NCBI GenBank assembly: GCA_963740495.1
Contig: CAVUEK010000006.1
Location: forward strand, 604,474 to 668,473
Origin: an uncultured delta proteobacterium
GTDB lineage: Bacteria; Myxococcota_A; Polyangia; Polyangiales; CAVUEK01
Length of the DNA: 64,000 bases
Direction: 5' to 3'
Part shown: positions 5,725-64,000 of the stretch, piece by piece
Layout: each line of letters opens with the position of its first letter
Position numbering within the stretch: position 1 is the stretch's first letter
Notes under the pieces: generated by a model
Databases searched by the model: none
What the model was told of the DNA's origin: nothing
The model's input: only the letters and a program-made list of their open reading frames with translations
Program-made: the position numbers and the translations under genes

Positions 5725-6630
5725 GTGGCGTTCGGGCGCGGCAAGCTGATCCTCCTCGGCGAGCACGCGGTCGTGCACGGCCGGCCTGCCCTCGCGTGCG
5801 GGATCGAGCGCGGCGCGCACGCGACGGCGGTCGCGGCGGATGCCCCTTCGCTCCTCGTCGAGCCTTGGGGAGTCGACGTCGCGCCCGATCCGTCGAGCGA
5901 CGTGGAGCTCGCGCGCGCGTTCGACGCGGCGCTCTCGAGCTACGACGAGAGGCCGAGCGTGCGCGTCTCGGTCGAGGTGGACCTCCCTGGAGGCGCGGGC
6001 CTCGGATGCTCGGCGGCGATCGGCGTGGCGGTGCTCTCGGCGATCGACGAGGCGATCGGAGCGACGCGCACGCCCGATGCGATCGCAGATGCGTCGATCG
6101 CATGGGAGCGGGTGTTCCACGGCAATCCGTCGGGAGTGGACGGCGCGATGGCGGCGTGCGGCGGCGTCGCCGTGTTTCGTCGCGGCGAGCCCCTCGAGCG
6201 CATCACGCCGAAGAAGGCGCTCACGCTCGTCGTCGGCCACAGCGGCGAGGCACCGAGCACGCGCGAGATGGTCGAGAGCGTCGCCCGGCAGCTCGCCCGC
6301 GCGCCGGAGCGCGTCGAAGAGGTGTTCGACGGGATCGCCGCGCTCGTGCAGAACGGCCGTTTCGCGGTCGTCGCGGGCGACCACGAGCACCTCGGCCAGC
6401 TCATGAACCTCGACCAGACGCTGCTCAACGCGCTCCTTCTGTCGACGGCGCGCCTCGAAGAGCTCTGCTCGGTCGCGCGCATCGCCGGCGCGCTCGGCGC
6501 GAAGCTCACCGGCGGCGGGGGCGGCGGATGCATGATCGCGCTCGTCGCGGATCGGGATGCCGCGGCGCCGGTCGTCGCGGCGCTCGAGGCGCTCGACGCG
6601 AGCCCGTTCGTCGCGGAGGTGCGGGGGTGA
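5725..6630 (+). CDS. mvk: Mevalonate kinase (GHMP kinase)
   Basis: GKLILLGEHAVV N-terminal motif. GHMP motif PGGAGLGCSAA. GTG start 5725. Stop overlaps next gene (GTGA). Confidence 0.85.
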   Translation: MAFGRGKLILLGEHAVVHGRPALACGIERGAHATAVAADAPSLLVEPWGVDVAPDPSSDVELARAFDAALSSYDERPSVRVSVEVDLPGGAGLGCSAAIGVAVLSAIDEAIGATRTPDAIADASIAWERVFHGNPSGVDGAMAACGGVAVFRRGEPLERITPKKALTLVVGHSGEAPSTREMVESVARQLARAPERVEEVFDGIAALVQNGRFAVVAGDHEHLGQLMNLDQTLLNALLLSTARLEELCSVARIAGALGAKLTGGGGGGCMIALVADRDAAAPVVAALEALDASPFVAEVRG

Positions 6631-16539: not shown

Positions 16540-18384
16540 ATGAGCGTGTCGATGCCAGAGCTCTCCGGGCGGCTGATCGGGAGCCGCTACCGGCTCGACA
16601 AGAAGCTCGGCCAGGGCGGCATGGGCGTCGTGTACACGGCGACGCAGGAGAGCCTCGGCCGCGGCGTCGCGGTGAAGGTGCTCCTGCCGTTTCTCGCGGC
16701 CGATGCGGGCCTCGTCGCGCGCTTCAAGGCCGAGGCGGAGCGCGCCGGACGTCTTTCGCATCCGCACATCGTCCAGATCTTCGACTTCGGCGCGGATCCG
16801 GATGGCGTCGCGTGGATCGCGATGGAGCTGCTCGACGGTGAGCCGCTCGGCGACCGCATCGACCGGGGCGCGCTCTCCGAAGAGGACGTCGTGCGCATCG
16901 GGCGCGAGACGCTGTCCGCGCTCGAGGCCGCGCACGCGTCGCGGCTCGTCCACCGCGATCTCAAGCCCGACAACGTCTTTCTCGCGCGGGTTCCCGGCGT
17001 CGGCGAGTCGGTGAAGGTCCTCGACTTCGGCATCGCGAAGGCGCTCGACTCGGAAGGCGCGCAGAAGCTCACCGCGACCGGCATGCTGATCGGGACGCCG
17101 CTCTACATGGCGCCCGAGCAGGCCGCGGGCCGCGACGTGGACCCGCGTAGCGATCTCTACTCGCTCGGCGTCGTTCTATACGAGGCGCTGACGGGACGCG
17201 TCCCGTTCGAAGCGAACAACTACAGCGGCCTCGTCTACGCGGTGATCAGCGTGGAGCCTCAGCGCATCGAGGTCCTGCGGCCCGGCGTCACCCCGGAGCT
17301 CGCGCAGATCATCCACCGCGCGATGTCGAAGGATCCGGCGCAGCGATTTCAGAACGCGCGCGAGATGGCCGACGCGCTGGCGCGGATCACGCTCGTCGGA
17401 TCGGCGACTCCGGCGCGTTCGAGCGAGGACGCCTCCATCGGTGTCGCGCCCACGATGGCGACGCCGGTCGGGCCGGCGACGACGGGGCCCGCCGCCGTGG
17501 CGGCCGCCGCCGCGTACGCACCTTCGCCGGCCGCTGCGCGCGCTTCGCCTCCCGCGGTCGCTCCTGCCGGCTCACCCACGCCTGCGCCGAGCGGGCGACG
17601 CGGCATGGGTGTGTGGATCGGTCTCGCCGTCGTGTTGGCGCTCGGAGCGTTTGCCGGCGCGTACGCGCTCGGACGCGTGGGCTCGGACGCGACGCCCGCG
17701 CCACCGGTCGCGCCGGTCGCGACAATCGCTCCCATCGCGGTCGCGGTGGACCCGGCCGAGGTCGGCGCGGGACCCATGGTGCCGAGCGACACGGGCACGG
17801 GCACGGGCACGGATACGGGCACGGCGGCGGACACGGGCACGGATACGGACACGGCGGACACGGACCCGGGCACGGACACCGGGATGGGGTCGGCTAGCCG
17901 TGGAGGCTCCGAGGGCGCCGACCGCGGACCGAGGCGGCGCGGCGGATTGACGATGGCCGCGGTCGACGTGCCGGCGGCGCCCTTGCCGATCCCCGACGAG
18001 GGGCCGCCGCCCGCGATGCCGCCATTCCCGAATCGCGCACCGGGCGCGCGCGTGAGCTGCAGCTTCGTCTCGGCACCCGGGATGCCGTTTCGAGACATCC
18101 GGCCGGCGGTGAACTCGGCCGGCCCATGGGGGCGATGCTGGCCGCCGACGGTGCCGGTCCCCGACGTCAACCGAGGCCGCTGTTTCAACATCACCGTCTC
18201 GGGTGGCGGCCGTGTGCAGAACGTCGCGGAGAGCGGCACGGACAACGAGCCCGCCGCCTTTCAGGAGTGCGCGGTGCAGCACCTTCGCGCCGTCGTCTTC
18301 CCCGCGCCCGACGACCGCACGCCGCACACGTTCCAGATCTGCTTCGGGCTCGACGAGCTCCCCGCCGGCGGCGCGGGCGAGTAG
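16540..18384 (+). CDS. Ser/Thr protein kinase with TM segment, (TGTD)n repeat linker and C-terminal Cys-containing domain
   Basis: Kinase subdomains [32 protein letters not shown] and APE. Confidence 0.85.
17791..17880 (+). repeat. Tandem ACGGGC/ACGGAC hexanucleotide repeats encoding a (TG/TD)n linker inside the Ser/Thr kinase gene
   Basis: acgggcacgggcacgggcacggatacgggcacggcg... is visible directly in the sequence. Confidence 0.7.
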
Positions 18385-39940: not shown

Positions 39941-40018
39941 GCCCACGACCGGATGTTCGGCTCGCCTCGTTGCTACTGTCGAATTGTCAGCTATATGGAC
40001 GAGCCTCGCGGACATTCG

Positions 40019-40798
40019 ATGGACGAGCGTTACGACCGCAACATCGGAGTTTGGACCGAAGCCTTCCAGGAACGGCTGTGGCGAGCGCGGGTAGGCATCG
40101 CCGGCAGCGGCGCCGCGGGCGAAGGTCTCTCGGACCTCCTCGCTCGCATGGGTGTCGGCTCGATCAAGATTGCAGATCCGGATCGCTTCGAGCGCACGAA
40201 CATCAACCGTCAAATCGACGCGTCCGAGCAGACCCTCGGCCGCAAGAAGGTCGACGTCGCGGCGGAACGGATCCGGGGGATCAACCCCGACATCGAAGTG
40301 GTCACCTACGACGAGGGCGTGACCGCAGAGAACATCGGAGACTTCCTCGACGGCTGCGACTTCGTCCACGAGGCCATCGACTACTCGGCCCCCGCCGCGA
40401 GATCCTCCTGCATCGAGAGGCTCGAAAGCGAGGGATTATCGCGACGACCTCGGCCGTCGTGGGTACCGGTTCGGTGCTCTTCGTTTTTCTATCCCGACGA
40501 GATGACGTACGAGGAGTACTTCCAGTACCCAGGTGACACGAAGACCTGGAAGCCCCCGCCAAATCGGATCATCGGGATCGAGCCCCCTCTTACCTCGACA
40601 AAGAGCGATTCCTGGGGCGAGTTGCGGTGGGCACGGTGCCCACGACGGCGCCGGGAGCTTGCCTCGCCGGATATCTCGCTGCCGTCGCCTACGTCAGCAT
40701 ACTCCAGGGACAACGCGTGCCTGGAGCTCCGAAGATGGTCCGCGTGGACCTCTGGGGGATGATAGGCGTGACCGTTTTCGACGCGGACGCGGCCAAAT
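40019..40798 (+). pseudogene. ThiF/MoeB-family E1-like adenylyltransferase, at least 3 frame disruptions (about 40395, about 40485, 40560-40640)
   Basis: RNIGVW...GIAGSGAAGEG...DPDRFERTNINRQ in frame +2. ARKRGIIATTSAVVGTGSVLFV in frame +1. C-terminal LAGYLAAVAYVSILQG...DLWGMIGVTVFDADAAK in the third frame ends at 40798. Confidence 0.6.
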
Positions 40799-41628
40799 GA
40801 GTGGCGTCACGCCACTCCACGCCCTCAGCGGACACTCGGGTCGCAGGCTCCTGAAGCTCGAGGGGCCAAACCCCACCGGCTCCATCAAGGACCGGCTCGC
40901 CGAACATCTGCTCACGACGGCCCGCGCGCGTGGCGAGTTGCACGCCGGTCAACCAATCGTCGAGGTCACGACCGGAAACACGGGGGTCGCGCTCGCGAGG
41001 GTCGCCCAACGCTTCGGTAGCCCGCTGGAGCTGATCGTCCCTGAGGGTCTGCCGGATGGCATCTTGTCGCGCCTGGCCCCATATCGGGCAACCGTGACGG
41101 TCATCGACCGGGAGGCTGGCGTGGAGGCCGCGATGCGTCTCGCGCACGAGAGGCGATTCCATGGCTACTACTGGCCCGACCAGTATGGAAACGCGGAATC
41201 GTCGCGGTCGTACGTGGGGCTCGCGAACGAGCTGCGGGTCCATCCCCGTGATAGACGAACTGTTCGCAGCGGTCGGTACGGGCGGGACGATCATGGGTGT
41301 CGGCCTCCACGTGCGGCGCCGCGATCCGCACGTGCGCATCGTCGCCGTCGAGTCATCCGAGATGGACATCGAGGGAATGCGAAATACCCGCATTGCGCAT
41401 CGTGGGAGTAGTGATCTCTACCAACTCGACTTCCCTGACGAGACCGTGCGCGTCACGAGGACGCAAGCGCAGGCGGGGCTCGACGCTCTCCGACGGGAAG
41501 GGATCACCGCGGGCTTGAGCTCTGGCGCGGTATTCCACGCTGCAACGCAGACGATGGCGCACGGAACGACCTCGGTGCTCGTGTCTGCGGATGGACGAGC
41601 AGAGTTGCCCGATCCCACGCGGAGCTGA
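40797..41628 (+). pseudogene. Cysteine synthase (CysK/CysM)-fold PLP-dependent enzyme, frame disruption at about 41240
   Basis: GSIKDR, TTGNTGVALA in frame 0. IPVIDELFAAVGTGGTIMGVG in frame +1. ATGA start overlap with the ThiF-like gene. Confidence 0.65.
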
Positions 41629-41634
41629 TTACTG

Positions 41635-42315
41635 ATGACAGCAAGCGACAACATCTGGACACGGTTCGCCGTCTCCTATGACCGAGTGCTCGGCAACTGG
41701 AGCGAATATCAGCGTCTTAGCGAGGAGATGCGTCGTCACTTACCCAAGAACGGCAAGATCCTCGACGTCGGCTGTGGGACAGGACTGATCGCGATTCCTC
41801 TCACCAAAGACGGCTGCGAGGTCCACGGCATCGACAACAACGACGAGATGCTTGCGCGCGCGCGGCTGAATGCGGGGTCTGCCCTCGGGACGTCGATGCA
41901 CCTGGACAACGGAGATGCCGAGGAGCTTGCCTTCGCGGACTCCTCGTTCGACGGTGTGATCGCAAACAACGTCATATTCTACGTAGCCAGCCCGGCGCGC
42001 ATGATTTCCGAGGTACGCAGAGTCCTGAAGCCCTCGGGCGTCTTCGCTGTCTCGGGACCGACGCCGCACCTGGACATGAGAAAGCTCATCGACCAGATCA
42101 CCCGGGAATTTCGGGAGAGAAACATTTACGACGAGCTCAAAGACGACCTCGAGCACTTCGTCGCGTGCAGCGCGCAGTTGAAAGCGACGGGAATGCCGAA
42201 CGTCTACTGGGCCGCGCAGCTCGAGGCTCTGCTTCTGGAGGCCGGCTTCGACGAAGTGCTGACGTCGCGTGAGGATCTCTATCTCGGAGAGAGCTACCTC
42301 GTCGTCGTGCGTTAG
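41635..42315 (+). CDS. Class I SAM-dependent methyltransferase
   Basis: ILDVGCGTGLIA motif I, acidic loop GIDNNDEM, motif post-I DGVIANNV. Low GC. Confidence 0.75.
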   Translation: MTASDNIWTRFAVSYDRVLGNWSEYQRLSEEMRRHLPKNGKILDVGCGTGLIAIPLTKDGCEVHGIDNNDEMLARARLNAGSALGTSMHLDNGDAEELAFADSSFDGVIANNVIFYVASPARMISEVRRVLKPSGVFAVSGPTPHLDMRKLIDQITREFRERNIYDELKDDLEHFVACSAQLKATGMPNVYWAAQLEALLLEAGFDEVLTSREDLYLGESYLVVVR

Positions 42316-42317
42316 AC

Positions 42318-43973
42318 CTAGGTCGAGCCTTGCACGTGCTCGACGCTGGGTGACATCGACCGCAAATAGTCGTAGTGCTGAGGCATCGCGGAAGCGATCT
42401 CGGCGCTCCGGACCGCTAACTGGGCGAGGGCGCGCTCTCCCATCTCGAAGCCGAGGTGATCGAGCAGCGGGTATGGTCGGCGCGGCAAGCGGTCATACCC
42501 GTCCAAAATGCAGGTGTAGCTGAACGCCGGGAACACGCGCAGCCTCAGCTCGTCGAACACGGGCAATTCGACTCGAAGAGCTCCAGTTTCTCTTGGAGAG
42601 TCGGGGGTAGCTCCACGGAACGTGCTGCCGTCCAGAACTCCGAGTTCGTCCGCTGCGAGAGGACATAGTGCATCACGATGAAATCACGAATGTCTTCGTA
42701 CATCTCGCGCACCGTCTCGTTGTACTTTCGGATTCGTCCGGAGTCGAACGCGAGAGAAGGAAACAACGTCAGAAGAGTGGCCAGCCCGTATTCGATCAGA
42801 AAGATGCCGGTCGACTCGAGTGGCTCGAGGAACGAGGCCGACAAGCCAATGGCGACGCAGTTCTTGACCCACCGAATTTCCTCGTCCGCCCGATTCGCAT
42901 CGGGATGTGCCTCGCATCCGTGTCGGACGCGCGGGGTCCGAGGAACGCCCGCAGCTCTTGCTCCGCGCCTTCTCTTGAAAGCGCACCGCTGCTGTATACG
43001 TAGCCACAGCCGTTGCGGTGCATCAGGGAACGTCCCAGGCCCAGCCGGCGGTCAGAGCAGTGGACGTCGTGTACGGGGCGATCCCATCTCGGTCGGGGTC
43101 GTTCGTTGCTGGTAGCGCAACCGCGGCATCACACAACAGCACATTGCTGTCGCTCAGGAAGGGTTCTTGGAGCGTTCGCTGCAGCAGAGCACCGCGAAAC
43201 CCAGTGCAGTCGATGAAGAGGTCGCCTTCCACATTGGCGCCTCCTTTAGTGTGCAGCGCCTTGATGAAACCCCGCTCATCGAGCTCCACGGAAGTGACAT
43301 CGTCCACCACGTGACTGACACCGCGCTCGATCGCGAGCCCGCGGAGCAACCGCGCCAGGGCGACCGCATCGAAATGATATGCGGTGCTCTGATTCATGTC
43401 CGGATTGCTCGGATGAATGGGCGACTTTCGCGCCATGCAGAGTGCGACGTTCGGCGCGATCATCTCGGCCAGCGATTGCGACGCGCCTTCGAGCCGGCGA
43501 CGATGAGCATAGTGAAGAAGCGAAACGCGCGTACCGATCTGCTGGAAGTACGGACGCTCGAATGGAAGTACCGCAGGCTCGGGGCGTTGCGTGAACGGAT
43601 GCCAGAAGTGGTCGTCGGTCTTTCGGGCGGGATCGACCCAATCCACGAACTTGATCGCTGCCTTATATGTCGCACCCACCTTTGGCATCCACTCCGCGTC
43701 CGCGAGGCCGATGAAGCCGAGCGTCGTCCTGAGAGTCGGGATCGTCGCCTCCCCCACCCCCACTCCTGGAATGTCCTTAGACTCGACTAACGTGATCGCG
43801 ATCGACTCGCCCAGGGCCCTTTGCAGATAGGTCGCCGATAGCCAGCCCGCGGTTCCGCCGCCGACTATCACGATTCGCTCGATCCGACCGTCCATCACTC
43901 GCGGATAGCCGACAACATGTGCGTTCGCAAGGGCGCTGAGTACGCGTAGGGTTGCAGAGGCTTCGTACGGCAC
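42318..43973 (-). pseudogene. Flavin-dependent tryptophan-halogenase-family protein, at least 3 frame disruptions (about 43015, about 42850, about 42555)
   Basis: GGGTAGW and GEATIP in ORF 43023..43973. GYVYSSGALSREGAEQEL in ORF 42796..43023. SFLEPLESTGIF in ORF 42545..42844. C-terminus in ORF 42318..42566. Confidence 0.7.
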
Positions 43974-44029
43974 ATGCCTTTTCGACGTGTGCTTGGAGTA
44001 TCTTCATCGAGCGATATCGCGAGTCTAGG

Positions 44030-52770: not shown

Positions 52771-54440
<1,670 letters not shown>

Positions 54441-59819: not shown

Positions 59820-59971
59820 GCGAGCTCGGCGGCGTGTGAGGGCGCCGAACCTCCAATAATTACAGGCGGTCCTCCGTTCGCGCCAGAAAGGGTGCGACGA
59901 GGTGGGTGCGGGTGCGTCCTCGGTGCGAGCTGCTCCGTGTCGGAGCGGCATCGCGAAAGAGGAGAACCCGA

Positions 59972-60691
59972 ATGTTCCGCGACCCGACTCTCGTTTGCAC
60001 CTGCTTCGCGCTCGCTCTCGCGAGCTTCGCTTGTTCCTCCCATCGCGGAGGTGACGAGGGGCGCCCGCTGCCTGGTAGCGACGGCGCCATACCGCCCGGA
60101 TCCGATGGAGGCAGGCTCCCCAGCCGCGACGCTGGGCCGACCGCACCGGGCGAGTACGGCACGTGCTGCATCGACGACGCGCTCTACTCGTGCCCGAGCG
60201 CGGACGCGTTCGACGCGTGCGCAGGCCACTTCGACGTGGACAGCTGCATCTCGGGTTGCTCACCGTCGGACTTCGGTTGCGTCGACGACTGCTTCTCGAT
60301 GCTCGACGCCGCGTTGATGAGCGCGGACCCGAGCGGATGCGCGCGACAGCCCACGCGCGACGGCGAGTGTGCGACCGCGACGTGCAGCGAGAGCAGCGCC
60401 GCACCGGCGTGCGAGCTCGACGGAGATTGCGTGAGCGACAACTGCTTCAACGGTCACTGTTACGCCAACACCGAGGGCAGCCCGTGTGACCTCGACGGCG
60501 ACTGCCAGAGCGACAACTGCTTCCAGAACTGCTGTCAGAGCCGGGATGTCGGCGCCGGCTGCGATCTCGACGGCGACTGCGACAGCGACAATTGCTACGC
60601 GAACCGCTGCGAGGGTCGGGGGTTCGGCAGCAACTGCGACCTCGACGGCGACTGCGACAGCGGAAACTGCACCGACAACGTGTGCCGGTGA
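59972..60691 (+). CDS. Cys-rich repeat lipoprotein (4x C-D/E-LDGDC-x-SDNC-x4-6-C modules)
   Basis: Lipobox ALASFACSS. Repeats CELDGDCVSDNCFNGHC, CDLDGDCQSDNCFQNCC, CDLDGDCDSDNCYANRC, CDLDGDCDSGNCTDNVC. Confidence 0.6.
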   Translation: MFRDPTLVCTCFALALASFACSSHRGGDEGRPLPGSDGAIPPGSDGGRLPSRDAGPTAPGEYGTCCIDDALYSCPSADAFDACAGHFDVDSCISGCSPSDFGCVDDCFSMLDAALMSADPSGCARQPTRDGECATATCSESSAAPACELDGDCVSDNCFNGHCYANTEGSPCDLDGDCQSDNCFQNCCQSRDVGAGCDLDGDCDSDNCYANRCEGRGFGSNCDLDGDCDSGNCTDNVCR

Positions 60692-60702
60692 AGGAGACGA
60701 CC

Positions 60703-62067
60703 ATGAAGACCAACATCCTCCTCGTCATCGCGCTCGCCGGCTCGCTCTCCGCGTGCGGCGGCAGACAAGTTCCCGTCGGCCCGCCGGCCGGCGGAATGAT
60801 CACGCAGACGGCGGACCCCGCTGCGATCCGCGACGCGCTCGCGCGCGCGCTGCAGGATCAGCGGTTCACCGTCGAGCACGAAGAACCGGGCGCCGTGTAC
60901 GCGCGGCTCGACAACCGCGGCGTCCAGCTCCGCCTCGCGATCCGCTACACCGACCGCGAGTACCAGATCCAGTACGTCGACAGCGTGGGGCTCGGCTACC
61001 GAATCGATCCGCGGACGAACCAGCCGATGATCTCGCGCCACTATCCGAGGTACGTGACGCGCCTCGACCGCACGATCCGCGACGAGCTCGCGAGACCGGC
61101 GCGCGAAGCGCAAGAAGCGGCCGAGGAGCGAGCGCGGGCGCAACGAGAAGCGATCGAACAGCAGCGTGAGCACGAGCTCGCTCTCGCGCGCGCCGAGTCG
61201 GAACGAGTCGTCGGTGTGGAGCGCGAGCGCCATCGCGCCGAGATCGAGCGCGAGCGGCTTCGCGCGCAGGCCGCGCAGTCCGAGGCGGACCGAGAACGCG
61301 CCCGGGCCGACGCGGAGTACGCGCGGAGGCTTCCTCCGCCCGTGATCGCAGGGCACGAGCCGGTCGTCGTCGACCGCTTCGCGTTCGAGCCTCGACGCCA
61401 CCGCCGCGGGTCGGTCGCGCTGTCGCAGGGCTTCATGCCCAATCCGTTCGTGGTCGAGGGACGCGCCTCGGGACGCATCTCGTCGGCGAGCCTCGGCATG
61501 CCCTCGGTCTGCGCAGGGTACTGGGAGTCGTCGCCCGAGCAGGTCCTCGAGCTCCCGGACGGCTTCGGCTACCTGCGCGTCGACGCGCTCGCCGACGACG
61601 ACGTCACGCTCGCGATCGTCACGCCGGACGGGCAGGTCTGGTGCGACGACGACGGCGCGGGCGGCACCGACTCGCGCCTCGAGGGTCAGTTCCCGGCCGG
61701 CACGTACGCGATCTACGTCGGCACGTACGAGGCGGGCCACCGCACCGCGTACACGCTCGAGATGAGCGAGTACCGTGCGGGCGGCGCGCCGCGTGCGACC
61801 TACACGGCGTCGAGCCGCCGCGGTACGCGAAGCGAGGCCCCGCCCCCGCCGCCCGACTGCCGGCAAGCCGTGCTCCGCGCCGGCCACCCCGCAGCGTCTC
61901 TCATTCACTGCGGGCCCGACGTCGAGCCGTACTGCGCGGCGGCCCTGATCGCCGCCGGCCACAACCCGGCAGCGCTCATCCACTGTCGGGGTGTCGACCC
62001 TCAGTGCGCAGTCACCCTGCTCCAGAGCGGCCGCAACCCCGCCGAGCTCATCCACTGCGGAAGATGA
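60703..62067 (+). CDS. Hypothetical lipoprotein with coiled-coil middle region and C-terminal triple HxAA-LIHCG repeat
   Basis: Lipobox LAGSLSACGG. ERARAQREAIEQQREHELALARAESER coiled coil. Repeats at the C-terminus. Confidence 0.5.
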   Translation: MKTNILLVIALAGSLSACGGRQVPVGPPAGGMITQTADPAAIRDALARALQDQRFTVEHEEPGAVYARLDNRGVQLRLAIRYTDREYQIQYVDSVGLGYRIDPRTNQPMISRHYPRYVTRLDRTIRDELARPAREAQEAAEERARAQREAIEQQREHELALARAESERVVGVERERHRAEIERERLRAQAAQSEADRERARADAEYARRLPPPVIAGHEPVVVDRFAFEPRRHRRGSVALSQGFMPNPFVVEGRASGRISSASLGMPSVCAGYWESSPEQVLELPDGFGYLRVDALADDDVTLAIVTPDGQVWCDDDGAGGTDSRLEGQFPAGTYAIYVGTYEAGHRTAYTLEMSEYRAGGAPRATYTASSRRGTRSEAPPPPPDCRQAVLRAGHPAASLIHCGPDVEPYCAAALIAAGHNPAALIHCRGVDPQCAVTLLQSGRNPAELIHCGR

Positions 62068-62084
62068 GCCCTGCCGAGGGGGGC

Positions 62085-62182
62085 GACGGGGGGCAAAGCC
62101 CCCCGAAACGCGCGAGCGGAGCGAGCCCGGGCCGAAGGCCCGAGGGGGGCGCACGAGGAGACGACGCCAACGGCGTCGTCTA
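62085..62182. repeat. 98-bp hairpin-rich intergenic repeat, copy 1
   Basis: Identical to 62221..62318. Contains stem-loops GGGGGGC-aaa-GCCCCCC and GACGACGCC-aa-GGCGTCGTC. Confidence 0.8.
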
Positions 62183-62220
62183 CGAGGCGAGCGCGGGCCG
62201 CGCGCCAGCGCGGCCCAAGC

Positions 62221-62318
62221 GACGGGGGGCAAAGCCCCCCGAAACGCGCGAGCGGAGCGAGCCCGGGCCGAAGGCCCGAGGGGGGCGCACGAGGAGACGA
62301 CGCCAACGGCGTCGTCTA
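62221..62318. repeat. 98-bp hairpin-rich intergenic repeat, copy 2
   Basis: Perfect 98/98 identity with copy 1, 38-bp spacer containing palindrome GGGCCGCGC-gcca-GCGCGGCCC. Confidence 0.8.
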
Positions 62319-62320
62319 GC

Positions 62321-63834
62321 TCAGAACATGGGCGCGATGGCGCCCACGCGATCGGTGGGGTTTGGCACCTCCCCAGGCGCGGCGGCGCCGACCCCGACCG
62401 CGTCGAGCGCCGCCGCGAAGACGGGATCGTTCGCGGCGGCCGCGCCTCGACGCTCAATCCCGGTGTCCCACGCGCCGGTCGCGACGGGAGCGAGCCGGCC
62501 ACTGGCATCGAGGCTACCGGCAATCGCGCCGAGCCCGTCCGCCGTCGAGTCGACCGTCACCCCCGTGAAGGTCGGTCCGACCGCCTCGCCGGCGAGGTCG
62601 AGCACGATGCCCGCCCTTTCGTTCGCCACCAGATCGCACCGCTCGAACAGACCGCTCGTCGAGCCCATCAGATGAATCCCGTCTCCAATCCGGATCGCAC
62701 CGATGCCGCCCACCGCGCGAAGCGACTCGCGCGTCCCTTCGATGCGCGCGTCGCTCACCGACACGTCGTTCGCATCCACGGCCACGATCGACGCGAACGC
62801 GTTGTCGGCGAAGTGCGTCGCGGCTCCCGACAGGGAGAGCTCGCCTTCGCCGACCCAGACCGCCGCGTCTCCGTTGCCCGTCGCGTCGAGATCCTCCAGC
62901 ACCGCGCTCGAATCCGAGCACGAGCACGCCGTACCTGTCGTTGTCGTGAACGCCGACGGCTCGGCCCGTGAGCGTCGCGCCGTCGGTCGCGATGACTCCA
63001 TAGACCGGCTCGCCCCGGACGCCTTGATGCGTATCCGCGACGTCGACGAACTCGAGGTCGACGCTGCCACCGATCTGCCGGATGGCGACGCCCAACGTGT
63101 CGCGCACGCTCCCCCGGCTCCACGTGCCGTCGACGTCGCGAAGCACGACGCCGAAGCTCGCGAACCCGTGGACCTCGAGGTCCGTCGCGTCAATCGTGGT
63201 GCGCTCGGCATAGAGGCCGTACGCCGCCGTCACGACTGCCCATTTACCCGCTGCGTCGCAGACGCGTCCATCCGCGCCGGTGTCGCCGGGCGTGCAGTCG
63301 CAGGCCGTTCCGTCCGGACACTCGCCGGGCGGCGGGGCCGCCGGCGCGACGCGGAGCCAGCTCGTGTCGTCCGCATTGCCGGCTGTGACCGGACCACCGA
63401 GAATCCACGCTCGAGAGCGACAACGCACCCACGTCTTGCACCGCGAGCGCCACCCCCCGCGTCGCCGTCACGCTCACGTCCTCGACGACGGCGCCGCCAC
63501 CGGCCAAGACCAGGACGCCAATCCGGCCGTCGGCGCGCACGTCGAGCTCTCGGACGCGCGTGGCGGGCTCGCCGGCGCGCAGAACGACGCCGACCGACCC
63601 TTCGGCGGCCAGGACGGTCGTGCCCGAGCGGCCGGCGAGCGTCACACCGCTCGGCACCACCAGCGGGCCCGCAATCTCGCAGGCGCCGAGGGCGACGGTT
63701 TCGCCGGGCGCGGCCGCGTCGAGGGCGCTCTGCGCCGCCTCCGCATCACAGAACGGCCCGTCCGACGCGCACCCGGCCGACGCGCTCAGCGCCGCCAACG
63801 CGGCCACGAACCGTACGCGCCCGGTCCTGGACAT
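62321..63834 (-). pseudogene. Secreted right-handed beta-helix lipoprotein, 2 frame disruptions (about 63410 and about 62910)
   Basis: Lipobox ALSASAGCAS in ORF 63244..63990. Middle in ORF 62514..63428. C-terminal in ORF 62321..63211. Repeat-rich beta-helix pattern. Confidence 0.5.
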
Positions 63835-63906
63835 GCGGAGACATAGCACGGGGCCCCGCGCGGACCAGAGGCGCGGGCGGCGCGCGCTGCTACGCTCGTC
63901 CCGGCC

Positions 63907-64000
63907 GTGGGCTGCCTCGATCCCAGCGAAGTGCGAGACCTCGTGCGGGGCGCGGTCGCCCCGGCGCGGCTCGCCGCCATCGACCTCCACCTCGACGGTT
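63907..64000 (+). CDS. 5' fragment of a gene encoding the zinc-finger-like VGCLDPSEVRDLVRG...HLD N-terminal motif typical of myxobacterial anti-sigma/kinase-associated proteins (partial)
   Basis: GTG start. Motif CLDxxxLxxLxxGxxxPxxxAxIDxHLxxC. Runs off the window end. Confidence 0.25.
   Translation, partial: MGCLDPSEVRDLVRGAVAPARLAAIDLHLDG

Follow-up and report, generated by a model that had tools for sequence, protein, structure and literature searches.

Features of the locus

We analysed a 253-nt gap between two genes in a 64-kb stretch of DNA from a GC-rich myxobacterium (the window, meaning the whole stretch that was analysed). The open reading frames of a predicted lipoprotein on the + strand and a right-handed β-helix lipoprotein on the - strand converge on this gap with opposed stop codons, and third-position GC (GC3) backs both frames, in agreement with the convergent placement given by the initial annotation. 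The features, in order, are listed below, with hp1, hp2 and hp3 denoting hairpins.

60703..62067, + strand: upstream lipoprotein gene, predicted, 454 aa (MKTNILLVIALAGSLSACGG...), with a TGA stop at 62065-62067 and a GC3 frame signal to ~62050.
62068..62082, + strand: spacer leader, in which the first 12-mer CCGAGGGGGGCG starts (62074-62085), overlapping copy 1 by 3 nt.
62083..62182, + strand: repeat copy 1, 100 nt, with hp1 at 62087-62105, hp2 at 62126-62145, the 12-mer at 62140-62151 and hp3 at 62159-62181.
62183..62218, + strand: unique spacer S, 36 nt, with its own perfect 9-bp hairpin at 62195-62216.
62219..62318, + strand: repeat copy 2, 100 nt, with hp1 at 62223-62241, hp2 at 62262-62281, the 12-mer at 62276-62287 and hp3 at 62295-62317.
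62321..63834, - strand: downstream right-handed β-helix lipoprotein gene (MSRTGRVRFVAALAALSASAGC...), PF13229 Beta_helix, with its stop codon at 62321-62323.

The 454-aa lipoprotein carries three Cys-containing repeats at its C terminus; an identical protein (P0001) was found, together with homologues in Sandaracinaceae/Myxococcota. The β-helix coding signal crosses three frames (ORFs 63244-63990, 62514-63428 and 62321-63211), which implies two frameshifts. Within the gap, GC is flat over the three codon phases, and the gap is thus non-coding. Elsewhere in the window, five further gene pairs converge; their members lie only 4-22 nt apart and lack comparable hairpin structure. The 253-nt spacer is therefore an outlier, which marks it as an insertion or expansion.

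A perfect direct repeat packed with hairpins

The two copies form a perfect direct repeat with a maximal length of 100 nt and a start-to-start distance of 136 nt, since the bases that flank them mismatch on both sides (g at 62082 versus a at 62218; c at 62183 versus g at 62319). The pair had been described as 98 bp long and identical; the identity of 100% stood, whereas the length was 2 nt short on the left. Identity over 100 of 100 positions cannot arise by chance, which upholds the earlier view of a recent duplication or gene conversion. With S between the copies the layout is A-S-A, with a period of 136 nt and 1.74 units, the second S being absent, and copy 2 ends 2 nt short of the downstream stop codon. 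The window was confirmed to contain three occurrences of the 12-mer and no more (62074, 62140 and 62276); beyond the one in each copy, the third sits just outside copy 1. The start of the S hairpin is similar to that of hp2 (GCGAGC-C/G-CGGGCCG). For modules of ~25 nt the similarity is far above chance, with none of 100 shuffles producing any match. TRF also reported a looser 66-nt period in the repeat region. Higher-order sub-units of 66-74 nt were rejected, as the similarity was not significant once the 12-mer was removed (1420 of 2000 shuffles scored equally).

Each copy carries three hairpins and S a further one, and the whole gap between the two stop codons is filled by eight hairpins. hp1 (CGGGGGGC-AAA-GCCCCCCG) is the GGGGGGC-aaa-GCCCCCC hairpin noted previously and is present in both copies; hp2 (CCCGGGCC-GAA-GGCCCG(A)GG) corresponds to the imperfect hairpin with a gaa loop, its imperfection being a bulged A. 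The palindrome with a gcca loop was likewise recovered in the spacer as GGGCCGCGC-GCCA-GCGCGGCCC, a perfect 9-bp stem. The remaining hairpin had been read as a 9-bp stem with an aa loop and required correction: hp3 (AGACGACGCC-AAC-GGCGTCGTCT) has a 10-bp stem and an AAC triloop.

Folding, suggested as a check by the initial annotation, gave an energy of -164.7 kcal/mol for the 271-nt region compared to -129 ± 5 kcal/mol for shuffles (z = -6.9), so that the region is far more stable than expected from the shuffles. Copy 1 alone has an MFE of -59.1 kcal/mol (z = -4.4). Perfect stems of 7 bp or more reach their window maximum here, with six within 300 nt. The element is strand-asymmetric: unpaired positions of the + strand include 42 A and a single T, the complementary - strand counts being C 56, U 42, G 32 and A 1, and the gap holds 7 T in 253 nt. 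No G-quadruplex motif was found in the repeat region.

Searches for further copies and comparison with relatives

We searched for the element in the window and in public collections. No further copies of the modules lie elsewhere in the 64-kb window, and a covariance model built on the three-hairpin unit recovered only the two copies from the window and the relatives' loci combined. A 23-mer of hp1 revealed no second locus of the element among 185,579 species-representative genomes, a set that does not include the source genome, and matched only WOR-3 and Nonomuraea. The hp1 hairpin ACGGGGGGCAAAGCCCCCCGAAA recurs independently in other phyla. The WOR-3 copy is flanked by A/T tracts and reads as a canonical terminator, and the Nonomuraea copy lies, by eye, in a multi-hairpin stretch adjoining an apparent tRNA 3′ end. 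A 21-mer of hp3 gave no second locus in the JGI metagenomes. Its 15 matches were dismissed as chance, none extending beyond 49 aligned columns into the rest of the element; judged from the flanks, the majority appear to lie in coding sequence, where the 21-mer translates as DDANGVV, and a few are isolated hairpins. Plasmids, phages and viral contigs yielded nothing meaningful. A six-frame translation of the element, aimed at spurious ORFs lying over other copies, found nothing at E ≤ 10 among 5.8 billion predicted proteins. The window is ~0.6% of a ~10-Mb genome, an assumed size based on the Sandaracinus amylolyticus contig of 10.75 Mb, and in a window of this size the second copy of a dispersed family of up to ~100 copies would often be missed. 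The initial annotation had held that an element unique to this locus would be a simple local duplication, and in all of the sequence searched (window, relatives' loci and public collections) the element is indeed confined to this locus.

Orthologues of the lipoprotein in relatives share at most 57% identity and have different downstream genes. At the three loci with DNA, the gap downstream of the orthologue is 18-200 nt and there is no hairpin cluster; the one orthologue gap that was read contains a single hairpin. With other genes downstream and the cluster missing, comparison of these loci indicates that the hairpin-packed structure is not ancestral. At one locus (L022) a β-helix gene also sits beside the lipoprotein orthologue, and it was rejected as a counterpart, being not homologous to the β-helix gene here.

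Comparison with known repeat and RNA elements

The proposal of a REP/MITE-like element gained no positive support. Terminal inverted repeats and target-site duplications, the hallmarks of MITEs, are absent at the ends of the 100-mer, the 136-nt unit and the 253-nt spacer, the copies are direct, and no second locus was found. The sole inverted repeat in the region is that of hp3 with hp3, and no transposase was detected among the ~20 window ORFs scanned against Pfam. Two 100-nt repeats and one 36-nt spacer do not make a CRISPR array (at least three repeats of ~23-50 nt, with unique spacers of similar length), and copies that lie outside ORFs and are 100% identical do not resemble a diversity-generating retroelement (VR in the 3′ end of a gene, with adenine differences). 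Integron attC core sites (RYYYAAC / GTTRRRY) were not seen by eye at the element ends.

It is possible, though rather unlikely, that the locus belongs to a low-copy, lineage-specific family of mosaic repeats, like REP/BIME-2 or BOX, whose modules (hp1, hp2, hp3, S and the 12-mer) spread extragenically and were amplified locally here. The modular build, with its threefold 12-mer and the likeness of S to hp2 at their starts, is consistent with such a family, as are the location at the 3′ ends of convergent genes and a spacer unusually long for the genome; the strand asymmetry would suit elements processed as single strands, and a missing second copy has low power when the window covers <1% of a likely ~10-Mb genome. 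The enterobacterial REP/BIME-2 elements are similarly GC-rich imperfect extragenic palindromes that follow the 3′ ends of genes, frequently where two genes converge, and form mosaics of hairpins and linkers with a composite unit amplified locally in tandem. REPs shield upstream mRNA against 3′ exonucleases; they have hundreds of dispersed copies, alternating orientation in BIMEs, a conserved 5′ GTAG and RAYT transposases. Here, by contrast, one locus is known after every search, the copies are direct with no inverted pairs, and the 5′ motif is inconsistent: GTAG precedes hp3 (- strand) in copy 1 only, taking its G from the spacer, and copy 2 has CTAG. The lack of terminal inverted repeats or target duplication, and of significant 66-74-nt sub-unit similarity after removal of the 12-mer, also argues against a mosaic family. 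BOX elements of Streptococcus pneumoniae (boxA-boxB(n)-boxC) provide a further parallel, as modular intergenic elements made of short, hairpin-forming boxes in which a single module occurs in a variable number of tandem copies. BOX occurs at >100 loci per genome with conserved module sequences, whereas the searches here gave neither a second locus nor any similarity in sequence. As far as we know, also after a literature search, extragenic repeat families have barely been described in Myxococcota.

Readings at the level of RNA encounter other difficulties. A bidirectional terminator array, as first suggested, lacks positive support: none of the hairpins has a U-tract behind it on the + or the - strand, and no canonical terminator-like site was found on either strand in 61000-63500. 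The U-tract-less terminator candidates of GC-rich bacteria share stable G+C stems, 3-4-nt loops and a position right after stop codons, but eight serial hairpins and a perfect duplication exceed what termination needs, and the neighbouring convergent genes have no hairpins; termination by U-less hairpins is itself disputed. We consider it highly improbable that the region is one of Rho-dependent termination or pausing for the - strand β-helix transcript, with the C/U-rich unpaired linkers being rut-like. The linkers between hairpins are pyrimidine-rich on the - strand (the counts given above), and an intrinsic terminator is absent, but half of the region is held in very stable G+C stems, whereas rut sites tend to lack structure and to be poor in G. 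The β-helix gene that would be served also looks like a pseudogene, and no such region was found at other genes of the window. A structured RNA transcribed from the + strand, as part of the lipoprotein mRNA (its 3′ UTR) or as an sRNA processed from that, and present as two tandem paralogues (compare Pxr of Cystobacter), is improbable too, and the small structured RNA of the initial annotation found no positive support. Three stable stem-loops per ~100-nt unit and unpaired + strand positions that are A/G-rich and nearly U-free would fit, A/G-rich and U-poor unpaired positions being common in structured RNAs, and the strand asymmetry does suit a strand-specific role. However, the recommended Rfam check produced no family of Rfam 15 at its gathering threshold in the window; on 61950-62450 the best match scored 19 bits versus a threshold of 55, and nothing rose above noise even at E ≤ 10. 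No sigma-70-like or sigma-54-like promoter precedes either copy, the 36 nt of spacer leave no room for one, and no homologue appeared in any collection searched; the two copies amount to a single distinct sequence. Tandem sRNA paralogues do exist in myxobacteria (PMC5568312). The likeness to Pxr, three stem-loops in ~100 nt plus tandem paralogues, is limited to shape and does not extend to any demonstrated homology in sequence. The Pxr paralogues each have their own sigma-54 promoter (PMC5568312), differ by 14-23% in Cystobacter and are confined to Cystobacterineae (PMC5568312, PMC5684412), whereas here identical copies lie 36 nt apart in a Sandaracinaceae-like host. No sigma-54 site (TGGCAC-N5-TTGC, ≤2 mismatches) was found on either strand from 61647 to 63437, which ruled out a sigma-54/Pxr-like organisation.

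At least three window genes are broken by frameshifts (β-helix, PALP enzyme and tryptophan halogenase); thus the window assembly is indel-prone or rich in pseudogenes, and base-level features of the assembly call for caution. GGATTC was rejected as a systematic mark of frameshift errors: the two β-helix shifts lie at this motif, and four other occurrences in the window are unshifted. There is only a small probability that the second copy, or the copy number, is an artefact of error-prone assembly. The three frameshifted genes indicate consensus indel trouble and strong palindromes may upset sequencing and assembly. Nevertheless, any assembler that builds A-S-A needs S-to-A junctions in the reads, and reads that give a contig of 1.07 Mb would cross a 236-nt structure. 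The identity of the two copies and the perfect complementarity of every stem, G6/C6 runs included, likewise speak for a good local consensus.

A proposed locally copied 3′ spacer

Weighing these readings, we propose, with about even confidence, that a lineage-specific 3′ spacer packed with hairpins occupies the gap, and that recent local copying of one of its blocks, 100 nt long with three hairpins, gave A-S-A. No known family of mobile elements or RNAs appears to include the element. The second copy may have arisen by replication slippage, template switching or unequal recombination, events that strong hairpins would favour; alternatively, gene conversion could have homogenised both copies. 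Because close direct repeats of 100 nt are unstable, the duplication is taken to be recent, and copy number at the locus probably varies. Both converging mRNAs would run into the gap, and the GC-rich hairpins would therefore probably serve as their 3′-end structures, stopping 3′-to-5′ exonucleases and slowing RNA polymerase from both sides. Since the hairpins have no U-tract and the neighbouring convergent pairs have no hairpins, this terminating or stabilising role is one that we infer. The duplication itself is probably neutral.

Some further observations stand against local copying of a 3′ spacer. A-S-A, with 1.74 units, the second S missing and no detectable source for S, is not a plain tandem duplication, so a more complex event is needed. 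The near-absence of T at unpaired positions suggests a constraint acting on one strand, for which neutral duplication gives no account. We regard as unlikely, on present evidence, an undescribed strand-specific modular hairpin element of a Sandaracinaceae lineage, which would be either a REP/BOX-like low-copy family spreading as ssDNA or a freshly tandem-duplicated, three-stem-loop sRNA derived from a 3′ UTR.

If local duplication is all that occurred, the finding has little import beyond illustrating slippage-driven growth of hairpin-rich spacers in GC-rich genomes, and the locus is a probable copy-number-variable marker. It would gain importance should its modules turn out to be scattered through the source genome, where a strand-asymmetric hairpin element could point to a new mobilisation or RNA-stability system in the large genomes of Myxococcota.

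A perfect repeat pair between convergent genes

Self-comparison of the sequence revealed a 100-nt block present twice in direct orientation, identical throughout and with a start-to-start distance of 136 nt, in the 253-nt gap between two convergent genes. The initial annotation had placed the pair at 98 bp; the maximal repeat extends 2 nt further left, and the bases immediately beyond both repeat ends are not alike between the copies.

Features of the gap and its surroundings
60703-62067, + strand: upstream lipoprotein gene, 454 aa
62083-62182: copy 1 of the repeat
62195-62216: S hairpin, a perfect 9-bp stem inside the unique 36-nt spacer (S)
62219-62318: copy 2 of the repeat
62321-62323, - strand: end of the downstream right-handed beta-helix lipoprotein gene, 2 nt from copy 2
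Each copy, hairpin hp1: CGGGGGGC-AAA-GCCCCCCG
Each copy, hairpin hp2: CCCGGGCC-GAA-GGCCCG(A)GG, with the A bulged
Each copy, hairpin hp3: AGACGACGCC-AAC-GGCGTCGTCT, 10-bp stem with an AAC loop
3465/3482, 9888/9911, 18384/18392, 32438/32443 and 48146/48165: facing stops of other convergent pairs

The third stem-loop, first described with 9 bp and an aa loop, is present with the slightly different dimensions listed here. The palindrome noted in the spacer is the perfect S hairpin, and the element said to recur three times is the 12-mer CCGAGGGGGGCG; the window has exactly three of these, one in each copy and a third lying across the start of copy 1. RNA folding, proposed as a check, returned three local hairpins per copy, and the 271-nt region folds better than shuffled sequences by 35 kcal/mol on the + strand (z = -6.9) and by ~30 kcal/mol on the - strand (z = -5.8). 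Modules of ~25 nt never found a match in shuffled sequence, and no comparable cluster of perfect hairpins occurs elsewhere in the window. The repeat and hairpin structure is not a product of chance.

The layout, repeat-spacer-repeat (A-S-A), amounts to 1.74 units with the second S missing and is other than a plain tandem duplication. A looser 66-nt period from TRF was not significant after removal of the shared 12-mer.

The hairpin region is also the longest T-depleted stretch of the window. Only 7 of the 253 nt of the gap are T and, since six of these are imposed by pairing in the hp3 stems, the unpaired positions hold 42 A against a single T; counting distinct sequence only, by eye, the ratio is still extreme (~24 to 1). 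The element is therefore strand-asymmetric, which neither a pure DNA palindrome array nor a symmetric bidirectional terminator would predict.

Genomic setting of the hairpins

The window has a G+C content of 71%. Third-position GC backs both flanking gene frames and is flat over the gap, which is thus noncoding. The hairpins take up all of it. The stops of the five other convergent pairs of the window lie 4-22 nt apart, without hairpins and too tight for terminator hairpins. Judged by these pairs, the 253-nt spacer is an outlier within its own genome, which evidently needs no such structure between convergent genes.

The C-terminal end of the lipoprotein carries three 24-25-aa Cys-containing repeats (...NPAALIHC..., 61846-62057), a motif type kept in its 57%-identical homologue. 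The ORF just upstream (59906-60691, + strand) contains four 75-nt (25-aa) cysteine-rich repeats at 60401-60679, of the type C-x-L-D-G-D-C-x-S-D-N-C, and has no Pfam match.

Comparison with relatives and search for further copies

All homologues of the lipoprotein come from Myxococcota, Sandaracinaceae among them. A 1.07-Mb contig encodes an identical protein; the closest homologue after that shows just 57% identity. Gene order 3' of the orthologue differs among relatives. At the three loci represented by DNA, the gap after the orthologue measures 18-200 nt and no hairpin cluster occurs; the sole relative gap read, at the locus of the 57%-identical homologue, has a single ordinary hairpin. The structure is thus not an ancestral one, and the element is represented by a single distinct sequence.

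BLASTN (word size 7), pattern searches allowing three mismatches and a three-hairpin covariance model found no more than these two copies across the window and five relatives' loci. The hp1 23-mer is absent from all Myxococcota species representatives and matched one WOR-3 and two Nonomuraea genomes, nothing else, so this collection does not include the source genome. The WOR-3 hairpin has A/T tracts on its flanks, like a canonical terminator; the Nonomuraea matches lie within multi-hairpin stretches adjoining sequence that, judged by eye, resembles a tRNA 3' end. The two Nonomuraea loci (L003, 7836-7866; L004, 1548-1578) share with the element 31/32 nt of GGGGGGC(G)ACGGGGGGCAAAGCCCCCCGAAA, 8 nt beyond the searched pattern. 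The match is probably a convergence of simple G6/C6 hairpins, with the extra 8 nt unaccounted for. The hp3 21-mer had 15 metagenome matches, none aligned over more than 49 columns (hp3 and immediate flanks). Judged by the flanking sequence shown with them, the majority appear to be coding and a few are isolated hairpins. No meaningful match came from plasmids, phages or viral contigs, and six-frame translation of the element against 5.8 billion predicted proteins gave none at E <= 10.

Preferred reading and alternative explanations

These negatives rule out a very high-copy or widespread family. They are compatible with a low-copy family confined to the source genome, since the window is probably <1% of that genome (~10 Mb, assumed from the 10.75-Mb Sandaracinus amylolyticus contig). 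Such a REP/BOX-like family is nevertheless unlikely, as the copies are direct, no consistent GTAG was found and no other copy was found in the sequences searched. Terminal inverted repeats and target duplication are also absent from the element, so the traits that define MITEs, REP and REPIN elements are missing and the initial REP/MITE-like proposal gained no support; the layout is likewise unlike that of a CRISPR or of a DGR TR/VR pair. The suggested tandem bidirectional terminator array fared no better: neither strand has a U-tract after a hairpin, and the asymmetry is unlike a symmetric terminator. A Rho-type termination region serving the - strand is very improbable.

A structured RNA from the + strand, also raised initially, is doubtful. 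In shape the element resembles the Cystobacterineae sRNA Pxr, likewise built of three stem-loops and present as tandem paralogues, each with a sigma-54 promoter (PMC5568312, PMC5684412). It is set apart from Pxr by the absence of a sigma-54 site near either copy; no sigma-70-like promoter was found at the element, and the Rfam search gave no family match.

Improbable to a similar degree is an assembly artefact, for which the broken genes of the window speak. The beta-helix gene (62321-63834, - strand) has two frameshifts and is readable only across three frames, as ORFs 63244-63990, 62514-63428 and 62321-63211; a PALP (pyridoxal-phosphate) enzyme gene is split across two frames (40533-41411 and 41161-41628); and a tryptophan halogenase gene is broken into two or more pieces (43023-43973, profile positions 1-267; 42545-42844, 328-419). 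This suggests that the stretch is either indel-prone in assembly or rich in pseudogenes. However, the A-S-A junctions must occur in reads and every stem is perfectly complementary, G6/C6 runs included. We therefore regard the duplication as real, with its copy number to be confirmed in reads.

Both beta-helix shift points fall at GGATTC (~62913, ~63404), a motif that the window contains only nine times; at four further sites it goes with no frameshift. The PALP and halogenase genes, with ThiF-family and SAM-methyltransferase genes, lie in a low-GC island (40000-44000; 61-64% versus 68-73% elsewhere) that may represent a small biosynthetic cluster, either gained by horizontal transfer or in decay. 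Hexamer microsatellite-like arrays of ~15 units each, (CACGGG)n and (CGGGGT)n, occur at 17788-17879 and 52860-52952, with coding signal there. An ARAGORN tRNA-Thr(CGT) call at 6536-6627, unusually long (92 nt) and within coding-type GC3 signal, is probably a false positive; the Rfam tRNA model was silent there at the gathering threshold.

The likeliest reading, to which we give about an even chance, is a recent local duplication or gene conversion within a lineage-specific hairpin-rich 3' spacer. Recent duplication or conversion had been proposed from the identity of the copies, and it agrees with a perfect, non-chance 100-nt match without a further copy in the window or the relatives' loci. 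A plausible role of the hairpins is to structure the 3' ends of the converging transcripts. The duplication as such is probably unstable and neutral.
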